Shown: positions 5,488-28,840, counted from the stretch's first letter. The stretch: 64,000 nucleotides of DNA from an uncultured Gemmatimonadales bacterium (GCA_963798085.1 CAWCRS010000001.1:192001-256000); one strand, 5' to 3'. Notes: generated by a model not told the origin, from the letters alone. Numbers and translations: made by a program.

Positions 5488-5756
5488 GGGACCTCCTGTG
5501 GTGTGTGCGGCGTTCCCTTCGCCTCGCGCGGCGAGGTGCCGACCCGGGTGCCTCGGGGGATGAGCGCGGACACGTCCAGGCGGCCGTCGCATGCGGCGCT
5601 CCGGATGTTACGCTTTTTCCTGCTGTCGGCCAGTGGACTGCCCCCCAACCAGGATGAGCCGGTCAATACGGGATTTCCCCTCGCCTCTGACGGGACAACC
5701 CCTCTGGCATCCGGATGCTGCCGCGGCACTGTTCAATGCAGTCGTACTCATGCGGG

Positions 5757-8567
5757 ATGTCTGGTATGGTCGTGGTTGCCCCGCTCTCCAGCGACGCCGA
5801 CGCCCAACCGACGAGCGGCCCGTCGGTGGATCGTTTCGCGCACTCCATGCGCGTGCAGCGTGCGGCGCTCTGGCTCACGCTGGTGCTCTACGCCGGCTTC
5901 GGCGCGCTCGACCCGTGGCTGGCGCCCGCCGCCGTCATGCGCATCTGGCTGATTCGCGGCGTCGTCAGCGTGGCGCTGCTCGCCGGACTCTACCTGCTGC
6001 GTGACTCGCCTTCCCCGGCCCGCGTGCAGGCCGTCCTCGTGTCCGCGGTCCTGTTCATGGGCGCGGGACTCACGGGCATTGTGCTGTTCGCGGGCGCCAC
6101 GGGCGGCGCGACGTATGTCGTCTCGTTCGTGCCCGTCGTGCTCTTCGCGCACGGCCTGGTGCGGCTCCGTTTCCTGCCCGCGACGGTCTCCTGCTGGCTG
6201 GTAACACTGGGTTATCTCGGCGCCGCCGCACTGGCCGGCGGCATGCCGGCGAGCGCACTGGCCGGACAGATCTTCCTGCTCGGCTCCGCCAACGTCATGG
6301 GCATGTTCGCCAGCTGGCAGCGCGACAGCTCGGCGCACTGGGCCAATGCACTGGCGCGCAGCGAAGCCCGCCTGCAGCTGCTGGTCGATTCCATGAACGA
6401 GGGCCTCGTCGCCGTCGACGACGCCGGATACGTGACCTGGGCCAACCGCAGCGCCTGCGAGATGTTCCGCCTGGATCCCGCCCGCGCGGCGGGACGCCAC
6501 CCGTTCGAGTTCCTCGATGCAGAGAATCGCAGGGTCTTCGAGCAGCAATTCAGCGTGCGCAGCGGCGGCCTGCGGCAGCGCTATGAGATCGACTGGGTGC
6601 GTACGGATGGCTCGAGCTTCAACTCGATCGTCTCGCCGCAGCCGCTGTTCGCGGGCGAAGGCCGCTTCTCGGGCAGTGTCTCCGTAATCACCGATGTCAC
6701 GCCGCTCAAGGAAGCCGAGCGCGCCGTGCGCCGCAGTGAGGCCCGGGTGCAGGCGATCTTCGCCAGCGCCGCGGTCGGTTTCGCCGTGATCGATCGTGGT
6801 GGCCGACTGGTGCAGGTCAATGAGCACCTCGCGGCGCTGACAGGCTACACGCGCGCCGAGCTGCGCGGCCGGACGTACCTCGACCTGATCCCGCCGCCCG
6901 ATCGCCCGGCCATCCAGCACAACATCGAGGGCTTCTTCGCCGGCGAGGTACCGCTCACGCGCGAAGAACGCTGCTACCTGCGCAAGGATGGCAGCACCTT
7001 CGTGGCGACGGTCGCGCCCGCGCCACTGCGCGTCGACCAGGACCAGGTCGAAGCCATTGTCATCTCCCTCGTGGACATCACGGCGCTGAAACAGGCAAGG
7101 GAAGCACTGGAGCAGAGCGAGCGGCACTTCCGCGAGCTGGTCGACTACGCCAGCAGCATCATCCTGCGCTGGGACGTGGATGGCACGATCCGTTTCGTGA
7201 ATCCGTTCGGCCTGCGCTTCCTCGGCTATGCTCGCGACGAGATCGTCGGCCGCAACGTCGTCGGTCCGATCGTGCCCGCGACCGACAGCAGCGGCCGCGA
7301 CCTGGCCGCCATGATCCGCGACATCACCATCCATCCCGAACGCTACCTGTTCAACGAGAACGAAATCCGTGACCGCAACGGCAGGCGTTACTGGGTGGTG
7401 TGGACGAATCGCGCGCTGTACGGCCCTGACGGCCGAGTTGCTGAAGTGCTCAGCATAGGAACCGACATCACGGAGTTGAAGCAGGCCAGAGAGGCCCTGG
7501 CGAAACAGCGGGACGAGCTGGCCGAGCTTAACGATTTCATACGCAGCGTCTTCGGCCGCTACGTATCCGACGCGGTGATGGAGGATCTGCTGGCGTCGCC
7601 GGCGTCCCTGCGCGTGGGGGGAACCAAACGTGCTGTTTCCATCCTGGTCTCCGACATCCGCGGCTTCTCCACGATCTGCGAAGAATTGTCGCCCGAGCAG
7701 GTAGTGGCGCTGCTGAACACGTACTTCGAGACCATGACCGCGGTCATCGAGCGCTACGACGGCACCATCGACGAGCTGCTGGGCGACAGCCTGCTCGTGC
7801 TCTTCGGCGCGCCCGTCGAAGCGCAGGACCACGCCGCCCGCGCCCTCGGCTGTGCTGTCGACATGCAGCTCGCCATGGCCAATGTGAATGCGCGCAATGC
7901 GTCGAGCGGTCTGCCCGCCATCGAGATGGGCATCGGCATCGACACCGGCAATGTGGTGGCCGGCAGCATCGGCTGCGCGCGCCGCGCGAAGTATGGCGTC
8001 GTGGGCAGCCACGTAAATCTGGCCTCGCGCATCGAGTCGTTCACCGTGGGCGGTCAGATCCTGGTGTCCGACCAGGCCAGGCGGGGCGCGGGAGAGGGCT
8101 TTGTTTTCGGGCGACGACTCGAAGTCCAGCCCAAGGGCGCGCGCGAACCGCAGCTGCTGCACGAAGTGCTCGGCGTGCGCGGCGCAGACCCGAGCCTCAG
8201 CGCCAGGCCCGAACCGGCCGGAACGCCCGTCGATCTGGACGTCACCTACCGCATCGTGGAAGAGAAGCACGTGTGCGAAAGCACATGCCGGGGCCGCATT
8301 GTACGACTGTCACGCACCTCCGCCGAAATGACCTGCAGCGCCACGCCGCCTCTGCTGACTAACCTGCTGTTATGGATTGGCGGCGGGCCAGCCGGCGAAG
8401 CGGCCGGGGAAATCTACGCCAAGGTCGTGGACCATGCCGGGGCCGGCCCCGTGACGCTGCGCTTCACTTCGGTACCGCCCGCGGCCAGGCGGTTCTTTGC
8501 GCAGGTGCTTGCGGCCTCGCCGGAGGAAGCAGCCGCGCACGCTGCGGAACCCGTTTCTGCCAGCTGA
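5757..8567 (+). CDS. Membrane-bound PAS-PAS-PAS class III nucleotide cyclase (adenylate/guanylate cyclase) with PilZ-like C-terminus
   Basis: N-terminal TM helices, three PAS/PAC repeats, and motifs SDIRGFS, IDELLGD, MGIGIDTG and VNLASRIE. Start uncertain; the ORF is open from 5715. Confidence 0.92.
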   Translation: MSGMVVVAPLSSDADAQPTSGPSVDRFAHSMRVQRAALWLTLVLYAGFGALDPWLAPAAVMRIWLIRGVVSVALLAGLYLLRDSPSPARVQAVLVSAVLFMGAGLTGIVLFAGATGGATYVVSFVPVVLFAHGLVRLRFLPATVSCWLVTLGYLGAAALAGGMPASALAGQIFLLGSANVMGMFASWQRDSSAHWANALARSEARLQLLVDSMNEGLVAVDDAGYVTWANRSACEMFRLDPARAAGRHPFEFLDAENRRVFEQQFSVRSGGLRQRYEIDWVRTDGSSFNSIVSPQPLFAGEGRFSGSVSVITDVTPLKEAERAVRRSEARVQAIFASAAVGFAVIDRGGRLVQVNEHLAALTGYTRAELRGRTYLDLIPPPDRPAIQHNIEGFFAGEVPLTREERCYLRKDGSTFVATVAPAPLRVDQDQVEAIVISLVDITALKQAREALEQSERHFRELVDYASSIILRWDVDGTIRFVNPFGLRFLGYARDEIVGRNVVGPIVPATDSSGRDLAAMIRDITIHPERYLFNENEIRDRNGRRYWVVWTNRALYGPDGRVAEVLSIGTDITELKQAREALAKQRDELAELNDFIRSVFGRYVSDAVMEDLLASPASLRVGGTKRAVSILVSDIRGFSTICEELSPEQVVALLNTYFETMTAVIERYDGTIDELLGDSLLVLFGAPVEAQDHAARALGCAVDMQLAMANVNARNASSGLPAIEMGIGIDTGNVVAGSIGCARRAKYGVVGSHVNLASRIESFTVGGQILVSDQARRGAGEGFVFGRRLEVQPKGAREPQLLHEVLGVRGADPSLSARPEPAGTPVDLDVTYRIVEEKHVCESTCRGRIVRLSRTSAEMTCSATPPLLTNLLLWIGGGPAGEAAGEIYAKVVDHAGAGPVTLRFTSVPPAARRFFAQVLAASPEEAAAHAAEPVSAS

Positions 8568-8602: not shown

Positions 8603-9466
8603 CTACGTGTCATTGCCATCCAGACCGGTGAGCTGCGAACTGACCTGCCAGCACGACTCGATCAGCGCGGTGTCGTAGCAGAAGGGCGCCGCCTTCGTCT
8701 CCCGCAGCTTGTCGTAGTAACGACCTGTTGCGCCCGCGGTTCCGGGGTCGGCCGCCAGGCGCACGACCGCGCGCGCTGCCTTCTCCGGCGAGTCGCGCAT
8801 CCACTGGAAGAGATGGAGCAGCCCGCCCAGCCAGTGGCCGCTGCTCGTCCAGATGCCGGTGGCGATCGAGCCGGGATGCAGCGCGCTGACCGTGACGCCT
8901 GTGCCGGCCAGTCGCTTCGCCAGTTCGAACGTGAACAGAACCTGCGCAGCCTTCGAGTCCGCGTACGCCCGCAGCGCGTTGTACTTGCCCTGGCCGCGGA
9001 AGATGTCCTGCAGCGGCTGGCGCTGCAGGCGGGCTACCACGTGCATGCCCGAAGAGACGTTGACCACTCGACCCTGTGCCTGGCGCAGCGGTTCGAGCAG
9101 CAGGCGAGTCAGCAGGAAATGGCTGAGATGATTGACTGCGACGGTCTGCTCGAAGCCATCGGCCGTAATGATGCGTTTGGCGGCGATGCTGCCCGCATTG
9201 TTGATGAGTGCATCAAGCCGGTCGTGGCGCGCCAGGAAAGCCTGCGCGGCGGCGCGTGTTTCCGCCAGCGAGTCGAGGTTCGCCAGCAGCAGCTCAGGTT
9301 CGCGGCCGCCGGCGCGGCGGATTTCCGTGCACACCGCCTCGCCGCGCTCGCGCGTCCGGCTGAGCAGCGCCACAGCCCAGCCCTGTTGCGCGAGCGCCAG
9401 CGCAGTGGCTCTGCCAATGCCGCTGGTGGCGCCGGTCACGAGCGCGCGTCGAGCCGTCGTGTTCAT
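8603..9466 (-). CDS. SDR family oxidoreductase (retinol dehydrogenase-like)
   Basis: Motifs TGATSGIG, NNAG, YADSK and LHPG. Confidence 0.93.
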   Translation of the reverse strand: MNTTARRALVTGATSGIGRATALALAQQGWAVALLSRTRERGEAVCTEIRRAGGREPELLLANLDSLAETRAAAQAFLARHDRLDALINNAGSIAAKRIITADGFEQTVAVNHLSHFLLTRLLLEPLRQAQGRVVNVSSGMHVVARLQRQPLQDIFRGQGKYNALRAYADSKAAQVLFTFELAKRLAGTGVTVSALHPGSIATGIWTSSGHWLGGLLHLFQWMRDSPEKAARAVVRLAADPGTAGATGRYYDKLRETKAAPFCYDTALIESCWQVSSQLTGLDGNDT

Positions 9467-10524
9467 GTCGCGTCAGCTTCAGTCTTCGCTGCGGCCTGTT
9501 GCAGCCGAGCCGCCGGCTTGCCGAATGGGGGCAGGACCACCCAAGCGGCGAACATGGCGCCGCTGATGGCCGAATACCATGCGGCCCGCGCGATCCACGC
9601 GGGATCGACGAGCCCATTGAGCGGACCCAGCGGCACCGGCGGCCTGCCGGGCGGTCCCACCGGCAGCATGGCCAGCGTCGTCGCGATCTGGACGGCGAGA
9701 CCCGCGATCACGCCGGCTCCCGCGCCTGCGGCAATGCGCGACGCAGTGCCGTGGATGCGCGGCACAATGGTGAGCACGGCGGCCGCAATCGCACCCAGCA
9801 TTGCGGCGTGCACTACGTACCCGCTGATGACCGTCAGGCTGAGGCCACCGGCGTAGACTGCATCGTAAACCCGCCCGAACAGGTAGCCGGCCGCTGCGCC
9901 CGGGACGGGCGGCCAGCGCCTGTTCCTCCGGCTCATGCGCAGTCCGAGTTCCAGTCCGAGCAGCACAGCCAGGAACGCCGCCCATTCTTCGACGTCGGGC
10001 TGAAACGTGTGCTTCGCCTGGACCACGACTTCCTCGAGCTGCGCAGCGCTGGGCCGCAGCGTGATGGCCACGTTGATCGTGCCAATGGGCCGGTTGGCAC
10101 GGTTCACGGGCAGCTGCTGCGGCTGCAGGTACGGCTGGAAACCGATTGCCCGCACGTCCAGCACGACGATCGCACTGTCCACATCGATGCTGAAGGATCC
10201 GCCGGCATCGGTGGTGGCGGTCCGGTCGCCGACCCGCGCCATGGCGCCCGCAACAGGACGGCCAGCGGTGTCCGTTACCTGACCCGTAATGCGACCGCGC
10301 ACGGCCTGCGAGTCCGGCGTGTAGGGCGAGCGCTGCCCCGACGGTGCCTGCTGCACCGGCGGCTTCTTGTCCTGCGATGTGTCGCTCGAGTCGGCCGCAC
10401 CTCGCGCCGCTGCCTGCAGCGGCACGCCCGCCGCCGTGGCTGGGGCCGCCAAACTCGCGATTAGCAGGAGCCCGATCCGGCCAGCCTGTCTGACCACGTT
10501 CCGGCGGCGTGCGTTTCTGCTCAT
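9463..10524 (-). CDS. Carboxypeptidase-regulatory-like domain protein with C-terminal TM helices
   Basis: Signal/TM segment, then GRITGQVTDTAGRPVAGA..TTDAGGSF..RAIGF..LEEVVV, then ~5 TM. ATGA overlaps at both ends. Confidence 0.75.
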   Translation of the reverse strand: MSRNARRRNVVRQAGRIGLLLIASLAAPATAAGVPLQAAARGAADSSDTSQDKKPPVQQAPSGQRSPYTPDSQAVRGRITGQVTDTAGRPVAGAMARVGDRTATTDAGGSFSIDVDSAIVVLDVRAIGFQPYLQPQQLPVNRANRPIGTINVAITLRPSAAQLEEVVVQAKHTFQPDVEEWAAFLAVLLGLELGLRMSRRNRRWPPVPGAAAGYLFGRVYDAVYAGGLSLTVISGYVVHAAMLGAIAAAVLTIVPRIHGTASRIAAGAGAGVIAGLAVQIATTLAMLPVGPPGRPPVPLGPLNGLVDPAWIARAAWYSAISGAMFAAWVVLPPFGKPAARLQQAAAKTEADAT

Positions 10525-13500
10525 CCGATTGTCCAGTCCAGCAGCGCCAGGGCAAGGCCGGCCACGAACGCGAATACCAGCGCACGCAGAACGGTCCCCA
10601 GCAGATTGCTGCGAGGTGCAGCAATGTCCAGCAGCGACGATGCGCCTTCGATCTCGCCTGCGGATTCGGCCGGCGTCGTCGCATACCAGTGGAAGCCGAG
10701 GACGATCACCGAGATCACGAAGCCCGCGCTGGTAACGGCCATGCCAGCGCCGCGCAGCCCGTCGGTCTGTTCGATCGAGGCCGCCAGCACGTACTGCAGG
10801 GCTGCGCCCGCCAGTGCCAGTCCGGCGTGAAACCATGCGTGCATCAGGCGCGCCGCCCGACCGTAGAGTGCCTGCGCCGCCGCAATGGGCACGGAAACCG
10901 CCGCGACGGCAATCGGAATGGCGATCAGCAGTGTGGTGGATGCTTCGCCGCTGGCCAGCAGATTCGCCGCGAAGAAGAGTATGATGGCGATCAGGCTGAT
11001 CAGCTGCGCCGCCGCTGACCAGCGCATGAGCCCGCGCGCGCGGCGCCATGCGCGGTCTTGACGCTCGTACGCTGCTGGCGAGGCACCCGTTGCGCGGTAC
11101 CAGCGCAATCCCGCAACCGCAACACCCGCTGTGTACAGCTCACAGACGACGACGAGTGCTGCCGCCGGGAGTGACCACCTGTTCCTGTCAACGGCGTGGA
11201 TCGCGGTCCAGAGGGCAGGAATCTGTGCCAGAAGTGCCGTGATGGTGAGGCTGCCGAGCCAGGCCGCCGGTCGCAACCCGCCTGCGCGACCGGCCAGCAG
11301 GAGCGCGACCGTCAGCGGCACGGCCTGAGCACCCACGTACCAGGTCGCAATCAGAGCTGGGGCCCATGGGAAGGCGAGGAACGAATGGTCGTAGTGTATC
11401 CACACGGCAACGATCAGTAAGCCAGCCGCGTAGACCAGCAAAGTGCAGCCGGCAACGAGCATGAACCGGCGGGCCCAGACGCGCGCGTGCGCCTCCATGC
11501 CGCCGGGTACCGACACGTAGCCGCGCCGCCACGCGCGCAGCCACAGATAGCCACCCACCGTGACCATGTACGAGAGCGCCGCGGAACTGATGAGCGCCGC
11601 TGGCCCGGACCATGACCCGCTGGTGCCCCACCCGAAGATCAGCGTCAGCGCAATGGCACCGGTGCTGATGCCGCCGAACCAGCGGAGCGGCTGATTGGCA
11701 CCGGCCAGACCAACCGCAAACAGCATCGCGCTGAGCAGATACAGTACGATCAGCGACAGCACCTGCGCCGTCGTCTGCGGCAGACCGCCGAGTGTCAGGA
11801 TGAGCATCGACAGAAGGCGATCAATGGGCGCGACGGCCACGATCAGCCACAGTGGGAGGCTCGCCAGCAGCAGCACGCGCGCGGCGTTGCGCATGGTGCG
11901 CGCAGCCGGGTCGTCCGCTGCGCTCGCCGCGGCCTGTGTTTCGCCTGCACCTTCACCGGCGAGCACCGGCCTGACTCGCTTGTACCAGCCCGTGCTGCGC
12001 CGCACCAGCATGACAAGGAACCCGGCGGCGCCGAGCGTCAGCCCCACGCCGTAGCCGAGACTTCCGGTGACAAGGAACGCGAAACCGGCAATCAGCGCGT
12101 ACGCCGCAATGCTTGCGATCGGAAACAGGAAGCCCAGCGATACCAGTCCGCGTGTCTGCGTCGACCAGCCCAGCACGATGAGCGCCCCGCTCAGCGGCAG
12201 GACGTGCACCCCGGCCACGACGCCGAGCACAGTGGCGCCACCGACATGGATGACCGCCAGCAGTGTGGCCGCAGCCGGCAGCAGGCAGGCGACGAGACTG
12301 AGGAGAATCAGGCGCTGGCCAATGCGCAGCGTGCCCAGGCGGATCGCGGACGCGCGCACGCCACGCCACTGATTCCACGCGGGCAGCATGATCAGCACAC
12401 CGCCACCCGCGAGCACGAATTCCGCGACTTTGCGCCAGAGCGGTTCCGCGCCCGGCGACAGTCCCTCGGCAATCACGGTGAACAGCGCAATGCCGACGAA
12501 ATAGGCTGCGGCCGCGCGCACCAGCTTGTGTCGCACCACCTCGGCCAGGATGATCAGCGACACGCCCGTCGAATACATCATCGCGGCGGCCAGGAAATGC
12601 AGCACGGCGCTGTGACTGCCGACGCGATCCGCGAGAATCAGCAGCAGCCACGCCGTCGCTGCCGATCCGATCAGCAGGCGGGTCGCGTTGCGCAGCCGAC
12701 GGACCGCATCCTCGAGCACGCCGCCCGTCGGTCCCACCGCGGAGAAGAAGCGTTGCAGCAGCGGCGGCACCGGCACTGCGAGACGGTCCGACATGAAGGT
12801 CGCAAAGACATGCTCGCGCAGCGGACTGTCCTTCGATTCCCGCCGCCGGAGCATGCCGAAGATGCGCCGACCCAGCGCGGGCACGGGATTGTCCAGTGCG
12901 ATCTCGAGCACTTCCGCGTCGCCCGGCTCGTGCAGTGCGGACTCGAGCAGCGCATCCACCACGTTCTGGATGTCGGTGCGCTGGGCCGGTGTCAGATCCC
13001 GAATGAGCCGCGCGCGCAGCCAGCCCGGCATGCGACCCGTGCGGAACCAGGGCAGCCGGTTCAGCAGCGCGAGCCGTTCCTCGTTGAGCTGTGGTTGTCC
13101 GTCCTCATCATGGAGGTACCGACCCAGACGCAGCGTCAGCGGCCAGTGAAGCTCCGGATAGACGGCGCACGCGGTCAGCCACAGCAGTCCGGAAGCGCCG
13201 CCCAGGTACCAGCGCAGGTCCTGGATGAGGTCCTCGATCACCTTCGCGTCGGGCGGATGGTCATCCGTCCAGCGGTCGGCGCGCTCCGCCAGCAGGGGCG
13301 GCATGGGCCGCATGTTGTCGTCGACGCGCCCCCGCCATTGCTGCGCTGCGCCCGGGTTCGCGACGAGCGCATCGAGTCCGGCCTCGGTCGCGGGAAACAC
13401 GAGCATGCCGGTGCCCGTGAGCTTGTCCTCGCGCGGTCCCCAGTTCGCGGGATCTTCCGGCGTCAGCAGCGCGCGCAACGGCCAGCCATCGAGCTGGTCG

Positions 13501-14609
13501 GTCCAGCTCTCGAGATTGCCGGTGAAGGGGCTCAGCAGGGCATCGCCATCCGAGAAGATCATCAGCCTGCGGTACGGATAGCGCGATTCCAGCTCGTTCA
13601 GCGAAAGCGGACGCGCATTGCGGGGCGCGTAGCGCTCGTCCGGCACACAGACGCGCGGGTCGCGGGCAAAGTAGTAGCGGTGAATGAAAACACCGTGTTC
13701 GATGAGCCAGTCGATGAGGTCGTCGAAGAACCGTGCCTGGTGATCGCGATAGCTCAGACGATCTACCAGCACGAGGTACTCGGGCACTGTCAACTGCTGC
13801 GTGTCCACGCGGCGAAACTCTCCCGGGTCCTGCACCGTGCGCATCACGCTGGCCTCGATGTCCAGGAAAGCGGGGCCGAGACGGCGGTGCAGGCGGAAGT
13901 TCTGCGCCACGCGGAACATCAGTCGGCGATCGAACACCTGCGTTTCCTCGCCGCGCACCAGCAGCTTCGCTACCGGCGGTGTTTCGCGGGTGATGCGCCG
14001 CGCCAGGAACCGCCGGGCCGACAGATACTGCAGCAGCTGCTGCACCAGCAGCGCCAGGACCACGAGTGCGCCCAGCCACAGCATGATGTGCCGGTGCCGG
14101 GTCGCTTCCTCCGCCGGTGGCGTGACAACCGGAGTTGGAACCGGATTGGCCACAACCGTGTCGGGCGGCGGCGGAACTAACGTCTCATTATCATCCTTGT
14201 GCGGGATGAGCAGTGTGGCAGTGACGAGGAGCGCCGCGACCACCAGCGCGGCCACACCCCATTTCAGCCAGCGCGAGAGTCTGCCTGCACGGGAGAGGTC
14301 GCGCTGCAGCGTCTGCCGCGCTGGGCTCGGTACCGGCGAGGGCGCAGGCTGGAAGTGCAGTTCGCGGGTCTCGGACCAGCGCTGGAAGCGACGCTCGAAT
14401 TCGGCCTGCTGCTCGGGACTGTTGCAGAGGAGTGGTGCCAGGTAGGAACGCAGCCGCGCGGGCTCTTCCGGCAGCTCGCCGCGCGCGGCCAGCAGCAGGA
14501 TCAGGTTCTGTACATTGATGAACTGGCTGGTGCCGATGTTGTAGCCGTCGGCGCGCAGCGACTCGACGAAGTCGAGCAGCTCATCACTCAGCGCCTGCGC
14601 CGCCTTCAT
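10521..14609 (-). CDS. vWA-domain component of a MoxR ternary system with C-terminal multi-TM region
   Basis: CoxE-like N-terminal helices, LDIEASVMRT, vWA motifs YLVLVDRLS and LMIFSDG, helical WLTACAVYPELHWPLTLRLG/LPWFRTG region, then ~20 TM. Confidence 0.85.
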   Translation of the reverse strand: MKAAQALSDELLDFVESLRADGYNIGTSQFINVQNLILLLAARGELPEEPARLRSYLAPLLCNSPEQQAEFERRFQRWSETRELHFQPAPSPVPSPARQTLQRDLSRAGRLSRWLKWGVAALVVAALLVTATLLIPHKDDNETLVPPPPDTVVANPVPTPVVTPPAEEATRHRHIMLWLGALVVLALLVQQLLQYLSARRFLARRITRETPPVAKLLVRGEETQVFDRRLMFRVAQNFRLHRRLGPAFLDIEASVMRTVQDPGEFRRVDTQQLTVPEYLVLVDRLSYRDHQARFFDDLIDWLIEHGVFIHRYYFARDPRVCVPDERYAPRNARPLSLNELESRYPYRRLMIFSDGDALLSPFTGNLESWTDQLDGWPLRALLTPEDPANWGPREDKLTGTGMLVFPATEAGLDALVANPGAAQQWRGRVDDNMRPMPPLLAERADRWTDDHPPDAKVIEDLIQDLRWYLGGASGLLWLTACAVYPELHWPLTLRLGRYLHDEDGQPQLNEERLALLNRLPWFRTGRMPGWLRARLIRDLTPAQRTDIQNVVDALLESALHEPGDAEVLEIALDNPVPALGRRIFGMLRRRESKDSPLREHVFATFMSDRLAVPVPPLLQRFFSAVGPTGGVLEDAVRRLRNATRLLIGSAATAWLLLILADRVGSHSAVLHFLAAAMMYSTGVSLIILAEVVRHKLVRAAAAYFVGIALFTVIAEGLSPGAEPLWRKVAEFVLAGGGVLIMLPAWNQWRGVRASAIRLGTLRIGQRLILLSLVACLLPAAATLLAVIHVGGATVLGVVAGVHVLPLSGALIVLGWSTQTRGLVSLGFLFPIASIAAYALIAGFAFLVTGSLGYGVGLTLGAAGFLVMLVRRSTGWYKRVRPVLAGEGAGETQAAASAADDPAARTMRNAARVLLLASLPLWLIVAVAPIDRLLSMLILTLGGLPQTTAQVLSLIVLYLLSAMLFAVGLAGANQPLRWFGGISTGAIALTLIFGWGTSGSWSGPAALISSAALSYMVTVGGYLWLRAWRRGYVSVPGGMEAHARVWARRFMLVAGCTLLVYAAGLLIVAVWIHYDHSFLAFPWAPALIATWYVGAQAVPLTVALLLAGRAGGLRPAAWLGSLTITALLAQIPALWTAIHAVDRNRWSLPAAALVVVCELYTAGVAVAGLRWYRATGASPAAYERQDRAWRRARGLMRWSAAAQLISLIAIILFFAANLLASGEASTTLLIAIPIAVAAVSVPIAAAQALYGRAARLMHAWFHAGLALAGAALQYVLAASIEQTDGLRGAGMAVTSAGFVISVIVLGFHWYATTPAESAGEIEGASSLLDIAAPRSNLLGTVLRALVFAFVAGLALALLDWTIG

Positions 14610-15603
14610 TCCGTCTGCGTGCCAGCCAGTTGCGCACGGCCAGGGCGGCGGACTCGAGATCGTCGCCGTTCTTGACCAGGGTCGCGAGCGTGCTCACGAT
14701 GCGGTCCGTGTCGAGAGCGCGCAGCGGGTTGTCCGCCGCCGGCGCCAGCCGGCGCAGCGTGACCAGCCAGTTGAGCAGCTCCGCCGTGGACGGCTTCTTC
14801 CGCACCTGGCTGCGATTCTGCCGCAGCTCGTAGAACAGCTCCAGTGCGTCACCCAGGAACGGCTCGTCGAGATCGACATCACCACTCAGGCGGGCGGTGA
14901 CGATCTCGATCATGCGCTCCTTCTCGGGGAACGGAATGTGGTAGTACGTGCAGCGGCGCAGGAACGCGTCCGGCAGGTGCTTCTCCGAATTGCTCGTGAT
15001 GATCAGCAGCGGCGGGCTGTCGCGGTCTGCTTCAATGCGCACGTTCTCCAGCTCGGGGATGCGGAAATACATGCCCTCCAGCTCGCTGAGCACGTCGTTG
15101 GGAAAGTCGCGCGGCGCCTTGTCGATCTCGTCGATCAGCACCAGCGAGCGCATGGGCTGCTCCGGCACCAGCGATGACGGCAGATACTTCGAGCTCAGCT
15201 CTCGTTCGCAGGTGCGCAGGATCGCCGTGCCCAGCGCATTGAACGTGATGTAGTCGAGCGCACTGGCACTGTGTTTGTCCTGGTGGTAGCGGCCCAGCGC
15301 ATCGTAGACGTAGAAGAGGTCCCTCGCCGTGCTGGTCGACTTGGTCTCGAACTTCAGCGGCAGCCCGAACCCCAGCTCCCACGCCACGCTGTACGCCAGC
15401 TGCGTCTTGCCCGTGCCCGGCTCGCCCGTCAGCAGCAGCGGCTGGTTGAGCAGCAGCGCGACATTCACGGCATCGCGTAACCCCGCGTCAGGCACGTAGC
15501 GGTCCGGCCGCGTGTCCCATGCACGCCGCGAGCGCGGCAGTGCCGCATAGCCGTCGGACACGGGCTCCTGCCGCGTGCCGAGATAGAACGGGAACTCCAG
15601 CAT
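14584..15603 (-). CDS. MoxR family AAA+ ATPase
   Basis: Walker A GEPGTGKT, Walker B LIDEIDKAPRDFPND, and ITSNSEKHLPDAFLRRC. Confidence 0.95.
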   Translation of the reverse strand: MLEFPFYLGTRQEPVSDGYAALPRSRRAWDTRPDRYVPDAGLRDAVNVALLLNQPLLLTGEPGTGKTQLAYSVAWELGFGLPLKFETKSTSTARDLFYVYDALGRYHQDKHSASALDYITFNALGTAILRTCERELSSKYLPSSLVPEQPMRSLVLIDEIDKAPRDFPNDVLSELEGMYFRIPELENVRIEADRDSPPLLIITSNSEKHLPDAFLRRCTYYHIPFPEKERMIEIVTARLSGDVDLDEPFLGDALELFYELRQNRSQVRKKPSTAELLNWLVTLRRLAPAADNPLRALDTDRIVSTLATLVKNGDDLESAALAVRNWLARRRNEGGAGAE

Positions 15604-15619
15604 TTTGGATCCTCGCCGA

Positions 15620-16927
15620 TCAGGCCCTGATTTCCTTCAGGATGGTCTCGAGATGGCCCGCCAGCGGGTCCATCGAGATGCGTTTGGCGTCGTTCACGAC
15701 CTGCGGATTCTCGTAGAGCCGGCGGATGCGCGTGCGCACGTCGATCGCACGGCCGCCGACGAAGTCGCTGACATCATCGAGATCCGCCCACAGCTCCGCA
15801 TCCTCGAGCCGCACATCCGGCAGCTCGCGCGCGATCAGCATGCGTGTGTTGGGAAACAGCTTCTCGCAGACCGCGATCAGGCCGTGCTGCTCGAGCAGCT
15901 CACGCACCGCGCCGGCAAGACGGGACTCGCCGCCCAACCAGCGTGCAAGCAGACCCTGCCGGCCACTCACGGGATAGCGTATGCAGAGGAATGCGAACAG
16001 CGGCTCGCCAGCGCTGCGCCTGGGCCAGTCGTTCCAGAATTTCACGAAATTCTGAATCGACTGGCGAGGTCCCGCCTTCAGGTCCTCCGGCTCGACATAG
16101 GTGTGCACGAGCACGGGCCCCTGATGCGCATCCAGCTCGGCCGCAATGGTCTCCATGTCGGAGACACGCTTCAGCGCGCGCTCCGAGATACGCGCCATCA
16201 TCTGCGCGGCGAACTGTGCGGCGTCCGTAATGCGCTCCGGCCACGATACCGGGATGTCACGTACAGGCTTGAGACCGCTGCTGGCAAACGCCGCGGGCAG
16301 CGAGTACCTCGCCAGCACATCGACCAGCTCGCGATGACACTCCGAGCGGTTGCCGTGCACGATGCACACGACATTGCGCGTGTCGTGCGACGACCACACC
16401 TCCTGCGCCTCGCCCTGCACCAGCCCGATCTGCTCGCTGCGGTCACAGCGATACGCGAGCAGCGGCGGGATCGCACGGTGACGCTGGTCCCGGATCTTGC
16501 TCGTCTGCCAGTTCGCGACCGCCTTGCGCACCTCCGTGCTCAGCTCCTCGATCGTGGTGAAACGCTTGATCGTGCGGCCCGCTTCGACGTTGCCAATGCG
16601 ACTCAGGAAATCCGCCAGACGCGCGTCCCGGTCCTCCACATCGACGAACTTCTCGAAGATCAGACAGTCCTTCTGCCCGGCTACCGCCTGCTCGTACTCG
16701 TCGATCGTGTACTGGCCGTACTGCCGCCAGAAGATGCCGATGTACAGATCAGACGACGAAAGCTCGTTCAGGTAGACCTTGCGTCCTTCGACCGTCTGTG
16801 CACCCGCATCCTCCTCGAACAGCCAGGGCTCCACCTCCAGCGTGCGCAAGGCGGACTGCGCCGCCTTGCGCTCGTCGCGCAACTCGGCCATGCCGGAGCT
16901 GATGAAGACCTTGAGACGGACACTCAT
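15620..16927 (-). CDS. DUF4062 (TIR-like) domain fused to inactive STAND (iSTAND) domain
   Basis: KVFISS..LRDER..DLYIGIFWRQYG..TIDEY (DUF4062). LLAYRCDRSEQ..VCIVHGNRSECH (degenerate P-loop, iSTAND-like). Confidence 0.8.
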   Translation of the reverse strand: MSVRLKVFISSGMAELRDERKAAQSALRTLEVEPWLFEEDAGAQTVEGRKVYLNELSSSDLYIGIFWRQYGQYTIDEYEQAVAGQKDCLIFEKFVDVEDRDARLADFLSRIGNVEAGRTIKRFTTIEELSTEVRKAVANWQTSKIRDQRHRAIPPLLAYRCDRSEQIGLVQGEAQEVWSSHDTRNVVCIVHGNRSECHRELVDVLARYSLPAAFASSGLKPVRDIPVSWPERITDAAQFAAQMMARISERALKRVSDMETIAAELDAHQGPVLVHTYVEPEDLKAGPRQSIQNFVKFWNDWPRRSAGEPLFAFLCIRYPVSGRQGLLARWLGGESRLAGAVRELLEQHGLIAVCEKLFPNTRMLIARELPDVRLEDAELWADLDDVSDFVGGRAIDVRTRIRRLYENPQVVNDAKRISMDPLAGHLETILKEIRA

Positions 16928-22790: not shown

Positions 22791-25200
22791 ATGCGTCAAC
22801 TCGAATGGCTGGTTCAGCTGCGCGCCGACGTGACGTTCGCGCTGCGCAGCCTGCTCAAGGCGCCGGGCTTCGCGGCCGCGGCGATACTGACGCTCGCGCT
22901 CGGCGCGGGCGCCACCACCGCGATCTACAGCGTCGCGCGCGCGGTCGCGCTCCGGCCGTTCCCCATCACGCACGCCGAGCGCGTCGTGCGCATGTACGAG
23001 ACGAATCCGTCCACCAACGCGTTCGCGACATCGGAGCTCAACTATCTCGACTATCGCGATCAGACGACGAGTTTCAGCGCGTTCGCGGCGTGGATCCCGC
23101 GCAGCTTCAGCCTGCTCGGTCACGGCGACCCCGTGCAGCTGAACGGATCGGCCGTGACGGCCAACTACTTCACGGTGATGGATGTGAAGCCGGTTTCCGG
23201 GTCGCTCTACGGGCCCGACCAGGATCGGCCTGGCGGTGATACCCACGTCGTGGTGCTGAGCGAGGGCGCCTGGAAGCGCGTGTTCGGCGCGGATCCCGCG
23301 ATCGTGGGCAAGTCGCTGGACTTCGATGGTGTCGGCTACCTCGTGCTGGGCGTGATCCCCAATGAAGACTCGTACCTGCCGAGCGATTTCTGGGTGCCGC
23401 TCGCGCCCAACCCGCAGGGCGTGCGCAACGTGCACAACCTGCGCGGCCTCGCGCGCCTCAGGCCGGGCGTCACGCTGGCGCAGGCGAACGCGGATATCGG
23501 CGCGGTCGCGGCCCGGCTCGCGAAACAGTATCCCACCACGAACGGCGACTGGGGCGCGCGCGTCGGGCCCTTCGAGCTGTGGATCCTCGGACCGAACGCG
23601 CGGCCGCGCATGCTGAAGCCTCATCGGCGCATCCGTGTTCGTCCTCCTCCTCGCCTGCGTGAACGTGGGTAATCTTCTGTTAGTGCGCGGCACGGCCCGC
23701 CAGCGCGAGCTGTCGGTGCGCGCCGCGCTGGGCGCCGGACGCGCGCGCATCCTGCGGCAGCTGATCACGGAGAGCGCCACACTCTCGCTGATCGGGTCGC
23801 TCGCAGGCCTTGCCATGCCGCAAGCGTGCTGCCGCTGCTGCGCAGCGTGAGTCCCGGCAATATTCCGCGACTCAACGAAGCGGACATCGACGGCAGCGTG
23901 CTGCTGGTCGCGCTCGGCGCCACGGTGCTCGCCACGCTCGCGTTCGGCATCCTGCCCGCGCTGATCGCGACACGCATGAATCTGCAGTCCGCCCTGCGCC
24001 AGGGCGGGCGCTCCGTTTCCGCCAGCGGTCGCGGAATGCGGCGAGGTCTGGTGGTGGCCGAGGTCGCACTGGCCGTGCTGCTGCTGATCGGTGCGGGATT
24101 GTTCGGCAGGAGCTTCACCAACCTCAGCGTCGTGTCGACCGGTTTTCGCTCTGACGCGGTCCTGCAGCTCACCATGCCCGCGCCCGTCGGCCTGCCGCGC
24201 GATCAGCGACTCGCGTTCTTCGAGAGCGTCGACGCCGCCGTGGCGGCGGTGCCGGGGATCGTCAGCGTGGGCGCAACCAACATCGTGCCCTTCGCGGGCG
24301 GCAACTCCAACACGCAGTTCATCGCGGAAGGCCATGACGCGCCCGGCGAATTCTTCGCCGCGAACTGGCGCACGGTCACGCCAGGGTTCTTCCCCACGCT
24401 CGGCATTCCGCTGAAGAACGGCCGGCTGTTCACCGCGGACGACCGCTCGGACCACGGCCGAGTGGCGCTGATCGACGAGACCATGGCGCAGAAGCTCTGG
24501 CCGAACGGCGATGCCATCGGCAAGCACATGGTCGCGGCCACCAGCAAGCGCGCCCCCGAAGACCGCATCGAGATCGTCGGCGTGGTGGGTAGCGTGCGCG
24601 ATCTCATCCCCGCAAACGATCCCGCGCCCACCGTCTACATCCCGATGGCGCAGAGTCCGTGGCCGTTCATGACGTATCTGGCGAAGGTGCGCGCGGACCC
24701 GCAGGGCGTGAGCGACGGAATCAAGCGCGCCATGCGCGCCGCTGCACCCAACACACCCGTGCCCACGGTCACGCGGCTCGCCGTGAACCTCGAGAACGCG
24801 ATCGCACCGCAGCGGTTCACCGCATGGCTGCTCGTGGTGTTCGCCGTGATGGCGATGACGCTCGCGGCGGTCGGGATCTACGGCGTGATCTCGTACGGCG
24901 TGGCACAGCGCACGCCGGAAATGGGCATCGCCTCGCGCTCGGCGCGGAACCTCGCCGCGTTGCTAAAATGGTGTTATACGACGGCTGCACACCTGCCGTG
25001 ATCGGCGTGGTCCTGGGATCACTGCTCGCGTGGTGCTCTCGCGACTGCTCACTTCGCTCCTCTTCGGCACATCCGGAACAGACCCGCTAACCTACACCGT
25101 GGTGGCAGCGGTGCTGCTCGTCGTATCGGCCGCGGCAAGCTATGTGCCTGCCAGGCGGGCGGCGCGGCTGGATCCGCTGGCGGCGCTCAGAACGGACTGA
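22791..25200 (+). pseudogene. ADOP/MacB-FtsX ABC permease, split by ~4 frameshifts (possibly sequencing errors)
   Basis: Motifs [57 protein letters not shown] and PARRAARLDPLAALR, spread over different frames. Confidence 0.85.
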
Positions 25201-26711: not shown

Positions 26712-27122
26712 GTGACCTCCGGGGGTGAGAGTCAGCTGCACCTGGAAATCTTGGTGTTCCTTCTGAGGTTGCGGATCGGAATCGATCGAGGACAGCCTCG
26801 CTTTGCTCCGTCCGTCCGCGCCGTGTAATGTTTCGACAGCCTACGTCGATGCCTGGGGGAGCGCGATTGCCAAGCCAGCCCAACCGACACGCAACACCAA
26901 CCGCGCCGTCGGAAGCGGTCGGTCAGCCCTGCTTCGGAGTTGTTCGTGGGCCCGTGCTACAAGCGCGAAGGAACGCCTTTGGGGAGGGAAGGCTGTACCC
27001 CGCTCAACAAGCCACATAGATACGCTTGGAACGTTGCCGTCAATATTCCGCTCGCTTTGTGGCGGAATCTGATCGCGTACAGATGTCGCACACACGTGGC
27101 CGCGCTACCACTAACAGCAGCG

Positions 27123-28711
27123 TCAGTGAGGCCGGTCCTCTGAAGTCGCCTTCGGTGGCGTCACGTTGCGCGTCGACTCGATGAACCTGGCCAGGTCCTG
27201 TTTCAGCGCCTTGTGTGCGGAGGGCCGGATGTAGATCATATGGCCGGCCTCGTAGTAGCCGAACGACACGCGATCCGTGATCTGTTTGTCGTAGGCGAGG
27301 TGCGTGAAGTTGAACTCGGCGCCGCCCATGATCGTCGCCATGTCGTAGTAGCCGATGGCGACGAACACCTTCAGGAACGGATTGCGCGCCATCGCTCCGC
27401 GCAGCGCCTCCGTCATGTCCATGTAGCTGTTCTGCGTCGTACGTCCACGGCCGCACGTTGCCGGACGTCGGGTAGTGCAGGTCGGTCTTCCAGCCCAGCT
27501 CGTTGCGCACGTAATCCTGGAAGAGCGCCGTGTACGGTCCCTGCAGTCGCCTGGTTCGACGGATCGAATTCCTGGCGCTCGCCGGCGGCATCGAGGTCCA
27601 GCGCCGTGAATCGTCCGTCGAGCCGGCCGATCATCAGGCGCTGATCACGCAGCAGCTCTTTCCGGAACCGGCCGGCGCTCACCCGCAGGTTGGCGCTCCA
27701 GAATGAACTGCGGCGAGATGCCGGTGAGCCGCGCGAGCTTGTTGCGCGATCGCGGTCTTCTCGGCGTCGCGTGAGCGTGTTGCCCTTCGTCAGTGCGGTC
27801 ATGTACTCGCCCCAGCGCGAAGGACCTCGCCTGGTCCACGACCTGCTTCAGCGGTCAGTGATTGCAGGTCTGCCGGAGCCAGCTTCTTGTGGTACCACGC
27901 GTCGGCCGTGAACGTCTCGATGTTGCGACGCCCACGCGACATCGTTGTCGCGGTGCCGGTGAGAGCGTCTGGTAGGTCAGCAGCGACGAGATCAGGACGA
28001 TGCCGTTCAGCTCGATGCCGTGTCGCTGCTGCAGCTCGGCGGACAGGCCTGCGGAGCGGATCGTGCCATAGCTCTCGCCGATCAGGTACTTGGGTGACTC
28101 CAGCGGTTGTAGGTGGTCAGCCAGCCGTTGATGAACTCGCCGAACGCGCGGATGTCTGTCGTCTGCCCGTGGAACTCGCCCGGAGTTCACGCCGTGCGCG
28201 GTCCGGCTGTAGCCGGTCGATACCGCATCGACGAAGACGAGATCGGTGGCATCGATCAGCGAGTACTCGTTGTCTTCGAGGTGGAACGGTGGCGCCGGCT
28301 GGAATCCATCGTCCGCCATGCGCACGTGCTTCGGCGCGAACGAGCCCATGTGCAGCCAGATGGTCGCGGCGCCGGGCCCGCCGTTGTAGAGGAACGAGAT
28401 CGGGCGCGTACTGCGGTCCTCTCCATCCTTCGTGTACGCCACGAAGAACATGCGTGCCGCGATCTCGTTGTTATCGAGGCGGATCGGAATCGTGCCGACC
28501 GTGGCGGTGTAGCGGATTTCCTTGCCATCAAGGCGAACGGTGTGCGACGTCGTCGAGCCACATTCTCTTCGGCCGGCCCGAAGTACTCGACGCGCGCGGC
28601 AGACGGCGCGGCCTGCGCCTGATTGCCACGGCCCTGCGCAGCAGTCGTCGAGAACACGGCGCCCGTCAGCAAGGCGCCGATCAGAAGGGAACGTCGCATC
28701 GCGTGCTCCAT
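27123..28711 (-). pseudogene. S10 family serine carboxypeptidase, multiple frameshifts (possibly sequencing errors)
   Basis: Motifs FLYNGGPG, LVFVDAVSTGYS, GESYGTIR, IGRLDGRF, GYYDMAT and YYEAGHMIY in different frames. Confidence 0.88.
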
Positions 28712-28800
28712 GAGATCGCCTCGTGTGTGTTGTCGCTCCATTGAGAATTTGCAGTATGGCGGGCACGAGGGTCGCGGGCAACGCGAAGCCACCACGAGGC

Positions 28801-28840
28801 TTGACAGGTTGCCGCCGTTTATCCATCCTTATATGCGGAT
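28801..28840 (+). promoter_or_regulatory. Sigma70-type promoter with overlapping candidate SahR operator
   Basis: TTGACA at 28801, 17 nt spacer, CATCCT. Imperfect palindrome ATCCTTATATGCGGAT at 28825-28840. Confidence 0.55.

Follow-up and report, generated by a model that had tools for sequence, protein, structure and literature searches.

A predicted NIR NADase joined to an iSTAND, MoxR and vWA trio with a repeat membrane tail: a probable ternary conflict system in an uncultured Gemmatimonadales bacterium

Do five closely packed genes on one strand of an uncultured Gemmatimonadales genome form one system of five parts, or a smaller system with neighbours, and what might it do? The window, a stretch of 64,000 nucleotides analysed at its full length, carries on its minus strand a NIR/DUF4062-iSTAND gene (gene 1; 15620-16927, 435 aa), a MoxR AAA+ gene (gene 2; 14584-15603, 339 aa), a vWA component (gene 3; 10521-14609, 1362 aa), a CarboxypepD_reg-type gene with TM helices (gene 4; 9463-10524, 353 aa) and a short-chain dehydrogenase/reductase (SDR) gene (gene 5; 8603-9466, 287 aa). 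The initial annotation described these as five co-directional, coupled genes with 16 nt between the first two, an overlap of 26 nt at the next junction and ATGA overlaps at the last two, and the ORF calls agree with both the number of genes and their junctions. The overlaps suggest one transcript and tell little about function, since an ATGA overlap is possible at 478 of the 3107 co-directional neighbour pairs of the genome (15%), as counted with a crude gene caller that overlooked gene 4. The boundary between genes 3 and 4 is not a frameshift, because the stop of gene 3 coincides with the end of its closest relative. Codon use places gene 4 at the 3rd percentile and gene 5 at the 62nd, so that the first three genes are not cleanly separable from them. 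A scan of the locus found no sigma-70-type promoter and five terminator-like sites, a number within chance, and the contigs built from the sequencing runs were short and shallow, none of them bridging the gene junctions.

The first gene combines a probable effector with a degenerate nucleotide-binding domain. It scores 52.2 bits for DUF4062 and 44.2 bits for iSTAND (PF19995; cut-off 24), and the Pfam identities first proposed for the locus were recovered above curated cut-offs throughout (DUF4062 and iSTAND, AAA and AAA_5, CarboxypepD_reg, adh_short). Fold searches with the predicted model (pLDDT 90.4) returned a TIR/nucleoside-deoxyribosyltransferase fold for the NIR/DUF4062 domain (residues 1-149) and an ORC/Cdc6 fold for the iSTAND domain (residues 151-435); by this fold and by PF19995, the STAND-like C-terminus on which the initial annotation of 15620-16927 depended is present. 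HGNRSECH occupies the Walker A position, where GK[ST] is missing, which marks the STAND domain as the inactive type. The NIR domain matches the profiles of KpSwz (E 5.3e-15) and TEP1 (E 3.5e-9), and alignment to KpSwz identifies E77 (codon 16697-16699, minus strand) as the predicted catalytic glutamate. This column is the E97A position of KpSwz (PDB 10wc), with the numbering cross-checked through R18 and D71, and the residue is kept in 10 of 10 aligned iSTAND-fused NIR domains; the loop ahead of it is shorter than in the known NIR proteins. As NADase activity and its glutamate requirement have been demonstrated for DUF4062 proteins (2026 bioRxiv preprints on DUF4062/NIR), the NIR domain of gene 1 is an intact predicted NADase with its catalytic glutamate in place.

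Gene 2 is a MoxR-clade AAA+ protein with predicted intact ATPase motifs. Both AAA and AAA_5 exceed their curated cut-offs, and Walker A (residues 60-67), Walker B (156-162) and the arginine finger (214-218) are preserved; by regular expression they are also kept in 74, 80 and 80, respectively, of the best 80 of at least 505 MoxR relatives.

Gene 3 has no match in Pfam, NCBIfam or PADLOC. In Foldseek its four top matches are the vWA chains of NorD, taken from NorQD complexes (best E 9.3e-4), and the vWA label rests on this fold match together with two retained vWA aspartates; the earlier name of a vWA protein with multiple TM helices thus holds by fold and hydropathy and finds no backing in Pfam. 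The layout comprises a four-helix N-terminus (residues 2-85 of the model, where a CoxE profile gives no match), two TM helices, the vWA domain, a vWA-L linker and a polytopic tail, and 23 segments count as hydrophobic when the lower threshold is applied. The TM hairpin (residues 117-193; 14031-14261, minus strand), delineated by hydropathy, encloses a proline-rich outside loop. Among the best 120 of 182 homologues, hydropathy places a TM segment N-terminal to the core in 119 and two TM helices ahead of it in 88, so membrane anchoring is, as far as hydropathy can tell, the rule in this vWA branch. At about residues 130-210, six related vWA proteins (P0015, P0029, P0038, P0071, P0087, P0088) give weak and mostly non-significant matches to the beta-sandwich of gene 4; these lie between the N-terminal TM helices, where gene 3 has only the proline-rich loop.

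The vWA domain itself spans residues ~212-425 (13335-13976, minus strand) and was placed by its aspartates and by the NorD matches. Of 42 aligned vWA homologues, 30 have D283 and 32 have D354, and the MIDAS is non-canonical in that the DxSxS serines deviate. The top ten of a fold search with the whole model of gene 3 included Ro60, the Rea1/MDN1 MIDAS domain and NorD, on a par with receiver and TIR domains. The vWA-L linker that follows (residues 450-565; 12915-13262, minus strand), defined by conservation in homologues, is strongly conserved (mean column identity 45% over 42 homologues) and is present in all 120 of the best 120 of 182.

The remainder of gene 3 is a variable tail (residues 634-1322; 10644-12710, minus strand) that repeat comparison divides into five tandem repeats of ~140 aa with four TM helices each. 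With cut points picked by eye, comparison with window-shuffled controls gives z 3.0-7.0 for 5 of the 10 repeat pairs and at most 0.7 for the other 5. No family for the tail was found in Pfam, NCBIfam or PADLOC, and only two relatives with the same tail type were found, P0002 and P0003. P0003 carries a WD40 propeller as an insertion in the first outside loop of such a TM repeat, which fits a sensor role for the tail. A link to DUF2339 was considered and dropped, its sole Atlas row being weak (0.75, with DUF2339 in 16% of members). A scan of 64 vWA tails found WD40, TPR, FGE, PASTA, OmpA, PBP, IcmF and Yip1 domains. The IcmF tails (L014, L076) and a PBP tail followed by FtsW/RodA (L027) have, judging from their domains, been recruited from the machineries of type VI secretion and of cell-wall synthesis. 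Furthermore, bAvd genes lie directly 3' of FGE-tailed vWA genes at L016:6669-7034 and L051:14883-15362, which suggests that diversity-generating retroelements act on iSTAND systems.

Which of these genes travel together was examined in the neighbourhoods of the best 80 of at least 505 MoxR relatives in GTDB genomes. A vWA core is encoded in 69 of the 80 loci, and iSTAND was detected at E <=0.001 in 51 of 72 upstream ORFs scanned (eight loci had no called ORF). The vWA gene lies 3' of MoxR in 48 of these 51 iSTAND loci, two of the other three stopping at a contig edge, and in 9 of 9 DUF4062 loci, which bears out the expected co-occurrence of homologous trios. The N-terminus of the iSTAND gene varies, with TIR_2 in 19 of 72 and DUF4062 above cut-off in 9 of 72, and with CHAT, caspase, trypsin, kinase, PNP, EAD and death domains elsewhere. 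As such, the conserved system comprises, on this comparative evidence, three genes: DUF4062-iSTAND, MoxR and vWA. Of the features of the iSTAND-MoxR-vWA ternary class to which the initial annotation assigned it, iSTAND, the MoxR motifs, D283 and D354, vWA-L with a variable tail, and the conserved order were found.

Genes 4 and 5, by which the system had been extended to five coupled genes, do not travel with the trio in the loci compared. Gene 4 encodes a signal peptide, a CarboxypepD_reg-type beta-sandwich and about four TM helices, and gene 5 an ordinary PRK06197-like SDR of the adh_short family with intact motifs. In a system of five genes, gene 4 might serve as an additional sensor at the surface or in the periplasm, and the SDR, predicted to bind NAD(P), might tune or use the NAD pool. 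The two ATGA overlaps point that way, and so does the fusion of CarboxypepD_reg-type domains to vWA proteins in this family (seen in 3 of 64 tails, each from Haliscomenobacter, and in 5 of the best 120 of 182 homologues). However, tblastn found a gene 4 orthologue or gene 5 homologue in none of the 80 loci (best 80 of at least 505), even though 1.1 kb or more follows the vWA stop in 46 of 67, and phmmer found one distant SDR, ~8.6 kb upstream of MoxR in L049, and none 3' of the vWA gene; because of this absence the five-gene extension is unsupported. Both genes are also missing from nine metagenome loci and from G190, the other genome of the phylum with this vWA branch. Close relatives of genes 1 and 3 share one 12,042-bp contig, in which the search for a gene 4 homologue gave no match. 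For gene 4 no homologue of comparable length was found apart from itself, and its beta-sandwich resembles common domains in 133 of 401 phylum genomes, nearly always over residues 70-175 only; the overlaps, too, are of a kind common in this genome. Gene 5 has its closest relative (55%) in G024, a genome without any match to the vWA profile, and in 11 SDR loci no other gene of the locus lay within 1.5 kb. An SDR beside a second system of the same genome (contig C5) was rejected as support for gene 5, being only 30% identical and opening a hexuronate-catabolism-like operon. A system of five genes is accordingly improbable. Gene 4 is probably co-transcribed and a possible accessory, perhaps a recent one because certain vWA proteins in the family contain a fused domain of this type, rather than a conserved part, and gene 5 is probably a bystander; a recent local link of both with the trio is possible because the compared loci are all distant (vWA core <=42% identity).

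The distribution of the trio is patchy. The vWA profile matches 2 of 401 phylum genomes, the source genome and G190, and the MoxR branch of gene 2 is present at full length in 0 of 40 relatives (weak matches only, E 3e-25 or worse); both tallies include four unpublished genomes (G016, G097, G187, G210), none of which is needed for any conclusion drawn here. A first scan of metagenomes with gene 3 returned no relative and a second returned nine distant loci, while flank synteny in five relatives revealed no empty site. G190, the only other carrier of this vWA branch, has a kinase-iSTAND gene, MoxR and a vWA gene with a TonB-C and Ig-like tail (L113:8063-14750, minus strand). Around the locus lie genes for a PAS adenylate cyclase, DinB, peptidases and transporters. 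The cyclase gene (5715-8567, plus strand; TM-PAS-PAS-PAS-adenylate/guanylate cyclase) is convergent on gene 5, and the PADLOC model PycC covers its cyclase domain only. At 22791-25001 and 27040-28826, a MacB-type ABC permease and presumably a serine-carboxypeptidase-like gene each seem to be split over several frames, probably through assembly indel errors or decay.

Two further loci occur in the source genome. The one on C5 (L112:5839-11615; G000:C5, ~247840-253610, plus strand) is a second NIR-iSTAND-MoxR-vWA locus of four genes, in which a VWA_CoxE gene is separate from a vWA-L-kinase-TIR gene and the NIR glutamate motif is kept; relatives of its vWA-L part occur in 33 of the 301 genomes from the phylum to which G438 belongs. 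A third locus of MoxR-vWA ternary type (L114:4076-11123; G000:C7, ~166075-173120, plus strand) encodes, in frames that seem partly broken, a TIR-fused gene without iSTAND match, MoxR, a vWA-like gene and a split linker-effector gene, and is possibly of the iSTAND2 or TERNS3 type.

Taken together, genes 1-3 are probably an iSTAND-type MoxR-vWA ternary conflict system ending in NAD+ destruction, a joint reading to which we assign a probability of roughly 0.6. The membrane-centred, anti-phage or envelope-surveillance role proposed at the outset draws support from the polytopic gene 3, the patchy distribution and the swapping effectors, and is weakened by the lack of a defence island at the locus, where PADLOC gave generic domain matches only. 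That lack, with NorD and NorQ as the best structural matches, would also suit a role outside defence, in which MoxR and vWA are a chaperone pair for membrane-protein assembly or quality control, as in NorQD and CoxDE, and NIR is a metabolic or signalling add-on. A conflict system is nevertheless preferred to such housekeeping, which we consider very unlikely, because effectors swap at both ends, the distribution is patchy and one genome holds three different loci of this type.

In the conflict system as we picture it, gene 3 would sit in the inner membrane with its vWA and vWA-L domains in the cytoplasm, as suggested by hydropathy and positive-inside loops. The 20-helix tail would occupy the hypervariable slot of the family and may register threats on or within the envelope, for instance an entering phage, a damaged membrane or another microbe touching the cell. 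ATP-driven remodelling is established for MoxR-vWA pairs in general, and here a MoxR hexamer would bind the vWA domain and spend ATP on remodelling the complex. This would cluster or free NIR-iSTAND, whereupon NIR domains would assemble and hydrolyse NAD+ and the cell would arrest; NIR may instead make a signal rather than exhaust NAD+. Genes 4 and 5 would probably be on the same transcript and dispensable. The non-canonical MIDAS, the missing defence island and a tail without a family count against this explanation.

The signal could also run in the opposite direction. In the model of Kaur 2020/2021 (PMC7159879, PMC8195603), which calls the iSTAND gene the sensor and the tails effectors, iSTAND would sense a cytoplasmic invader molecule, NIR would make an ADP-ribose-type signal and MoxR would free the 20-helix tail as a killer pore or depolarising channel. 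The fast divergence of iSTAND (mean column identity 17% over whole proteins) and the recurrence of polytopic tails (at least four TM segments C-terminal to the core in 27, and at least eight in 13, of the best 120 of 182 homologues by hydropathy) would be expected of it. By contrast, named tails are mostly binding folds, many of them periplasmic, the catalytic effector types concentrate on the iSTAND gene, and the assayed DUF4062 proteins deplete NAD+ directly (2026 preprints), so that this direction seems unlikely. A sensing tail and an acting NIR domain are favoured because the enzymes are found mainly on the iSTAND gene, whose N-terminus swaps among known effectors, and the binding folds mainly on the tail, which swaps among them.

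A more tentative idea, which we regard as possible yet doubtful, is that the three genes represent a divided NLR, in which the MoxR-vWA motor, placed at the cut, replaces a lost ATP switch. NLR proteins are ordered as effector, nucleotide-binding domain, helical domain 1, winged helix and sensor. NIR-iSTAND in gene 1 could then provide the effector, the nucleotide-binding fold and helical domain 1, and gene 3 the winged helix (vWA-L) and a C-terminal sensor, whereby a membrane-embedded sensor would control a cytoplasmic NADase resistosome in trans. That vWA-L is a winged helix was predicted first and then tested. An Atlas search with vWA-L showed WHD_MalT as the only Pfam family, in the second row (0.77; a lead only). 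Our own profile aligner matched vWA-L to 16 STAND winged-helix domains over 102 columns in the predicted register (z 2.5), but a decoy reached z 3.0 and an iSTAND-versus-NBD positive control failed. Winged-helix HMMs exceeded 5 bits in 15-16 of 120 vWA-L windows versus 0-2 in controls, but in a register other than the predicted one. Comparison by hhalign was non-significant with shallow, deeper and split-type profiles, neither Pfam on 14 vWA-L segments nor a PDB profile search gave a winged-helix match, and whole-model fold searches of gene 3 barely covered residues 450-565. Co-folding of vWA with vWA-L (residues 212-575) and iSTAND (150-435) scored 0.00 in two runs and speaks neither for nor against the idea. 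A term search found the idea neither in the available parts of Kaur 2020/2021 nor in the literature searched. If true, it would mean a single mechanism and a fixed signalling direction for every iSTAND ternary system, and a mechanistic link from these systems to Avs proteins and the NLRs of plants and animals.

Several known systems bear comparison with the trio. The class itself was defined by computation as iSTAND ternary systems, here the vWA-MoxR subsystem 2 (Kaur 2020, PMC7159879; 2021, PMC8195603), and our literature search found no experiment on any of them. Kaur 2020 (PMC7159879) describes N-terminal TM segments in ~28%, tails that bind peptidoglycan, and fusions of iSTAND to TIR or DRHyd. 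Hosts of the class tend statistically, though not strictly, towards a multicellular habit. Shared with those systems are the three core genes in the same order, a TIR- or DRHyd-type fusion to iSTAND, possibly the four-helix N-terminus, N-terminal TM, vWA and vWA-L followed by a variable tail, and copies within one genome that differ in their tails; the unnamed five-repeat, 20-helix membrane domain sets the present tail apart. DUF4062 is not named in the main text of Kaur 2020, and from the fold we infer that its 'DRHyd' corresponds to DUF4062. For VMAP systems, Dore 2024 (PMC10907252) argues that signalling runs in reverse to that of Kaur and in the direction favoured here. The Esr pathway of Schaalia odontolytica (bioRxiv 10.64898/2026.09.08.750141) is similar in that an experimentally tested MoxR-vWA core senses surface epibionts and relays a surface threat; unlike the trio, it is of the beta-propeller type with a kinase/FHA output, and the available part of the preprint describes no iSTAND or NADase.

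Similarly, the defence proteins Swarozyc, Avs2-NIR, Vulcan, Vesta and Evangelion (bioRxiv 10.64898/2026.05.01.722283, 2026.09.04.749371, 2026.06.25.731849) share the NIR domain and catalytic glutamate with gene 1, but carry their sensor on the same chain or in the next gene, and the main texts of these three preprints mention neither iSTAND nor MoxR. NorQ-NorD and CoxD-CoxE have in common the MoxR ring and vWA adaptor, and lack a third, inactive STAND subunit, an NADase and a hypervariable tail. The iSTAND ternary systems are widespread, with at least 505 MoxR relatives, and because DUF4062 proteins were shown in 2026 to be NADases, the NAD+ level offers a simple read-out for the NIR-armed copies, which can settle which end senses and which kills; the C5 system, with its soluble kinase-TIR tail, is a natural swap partner in the same genome. 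To summarize, the class was already known, and the present locus is, on comparative grounds, a real three-gene member of it that unites an intact predicted NIR NADase with an unnamed repeat membrane tail.
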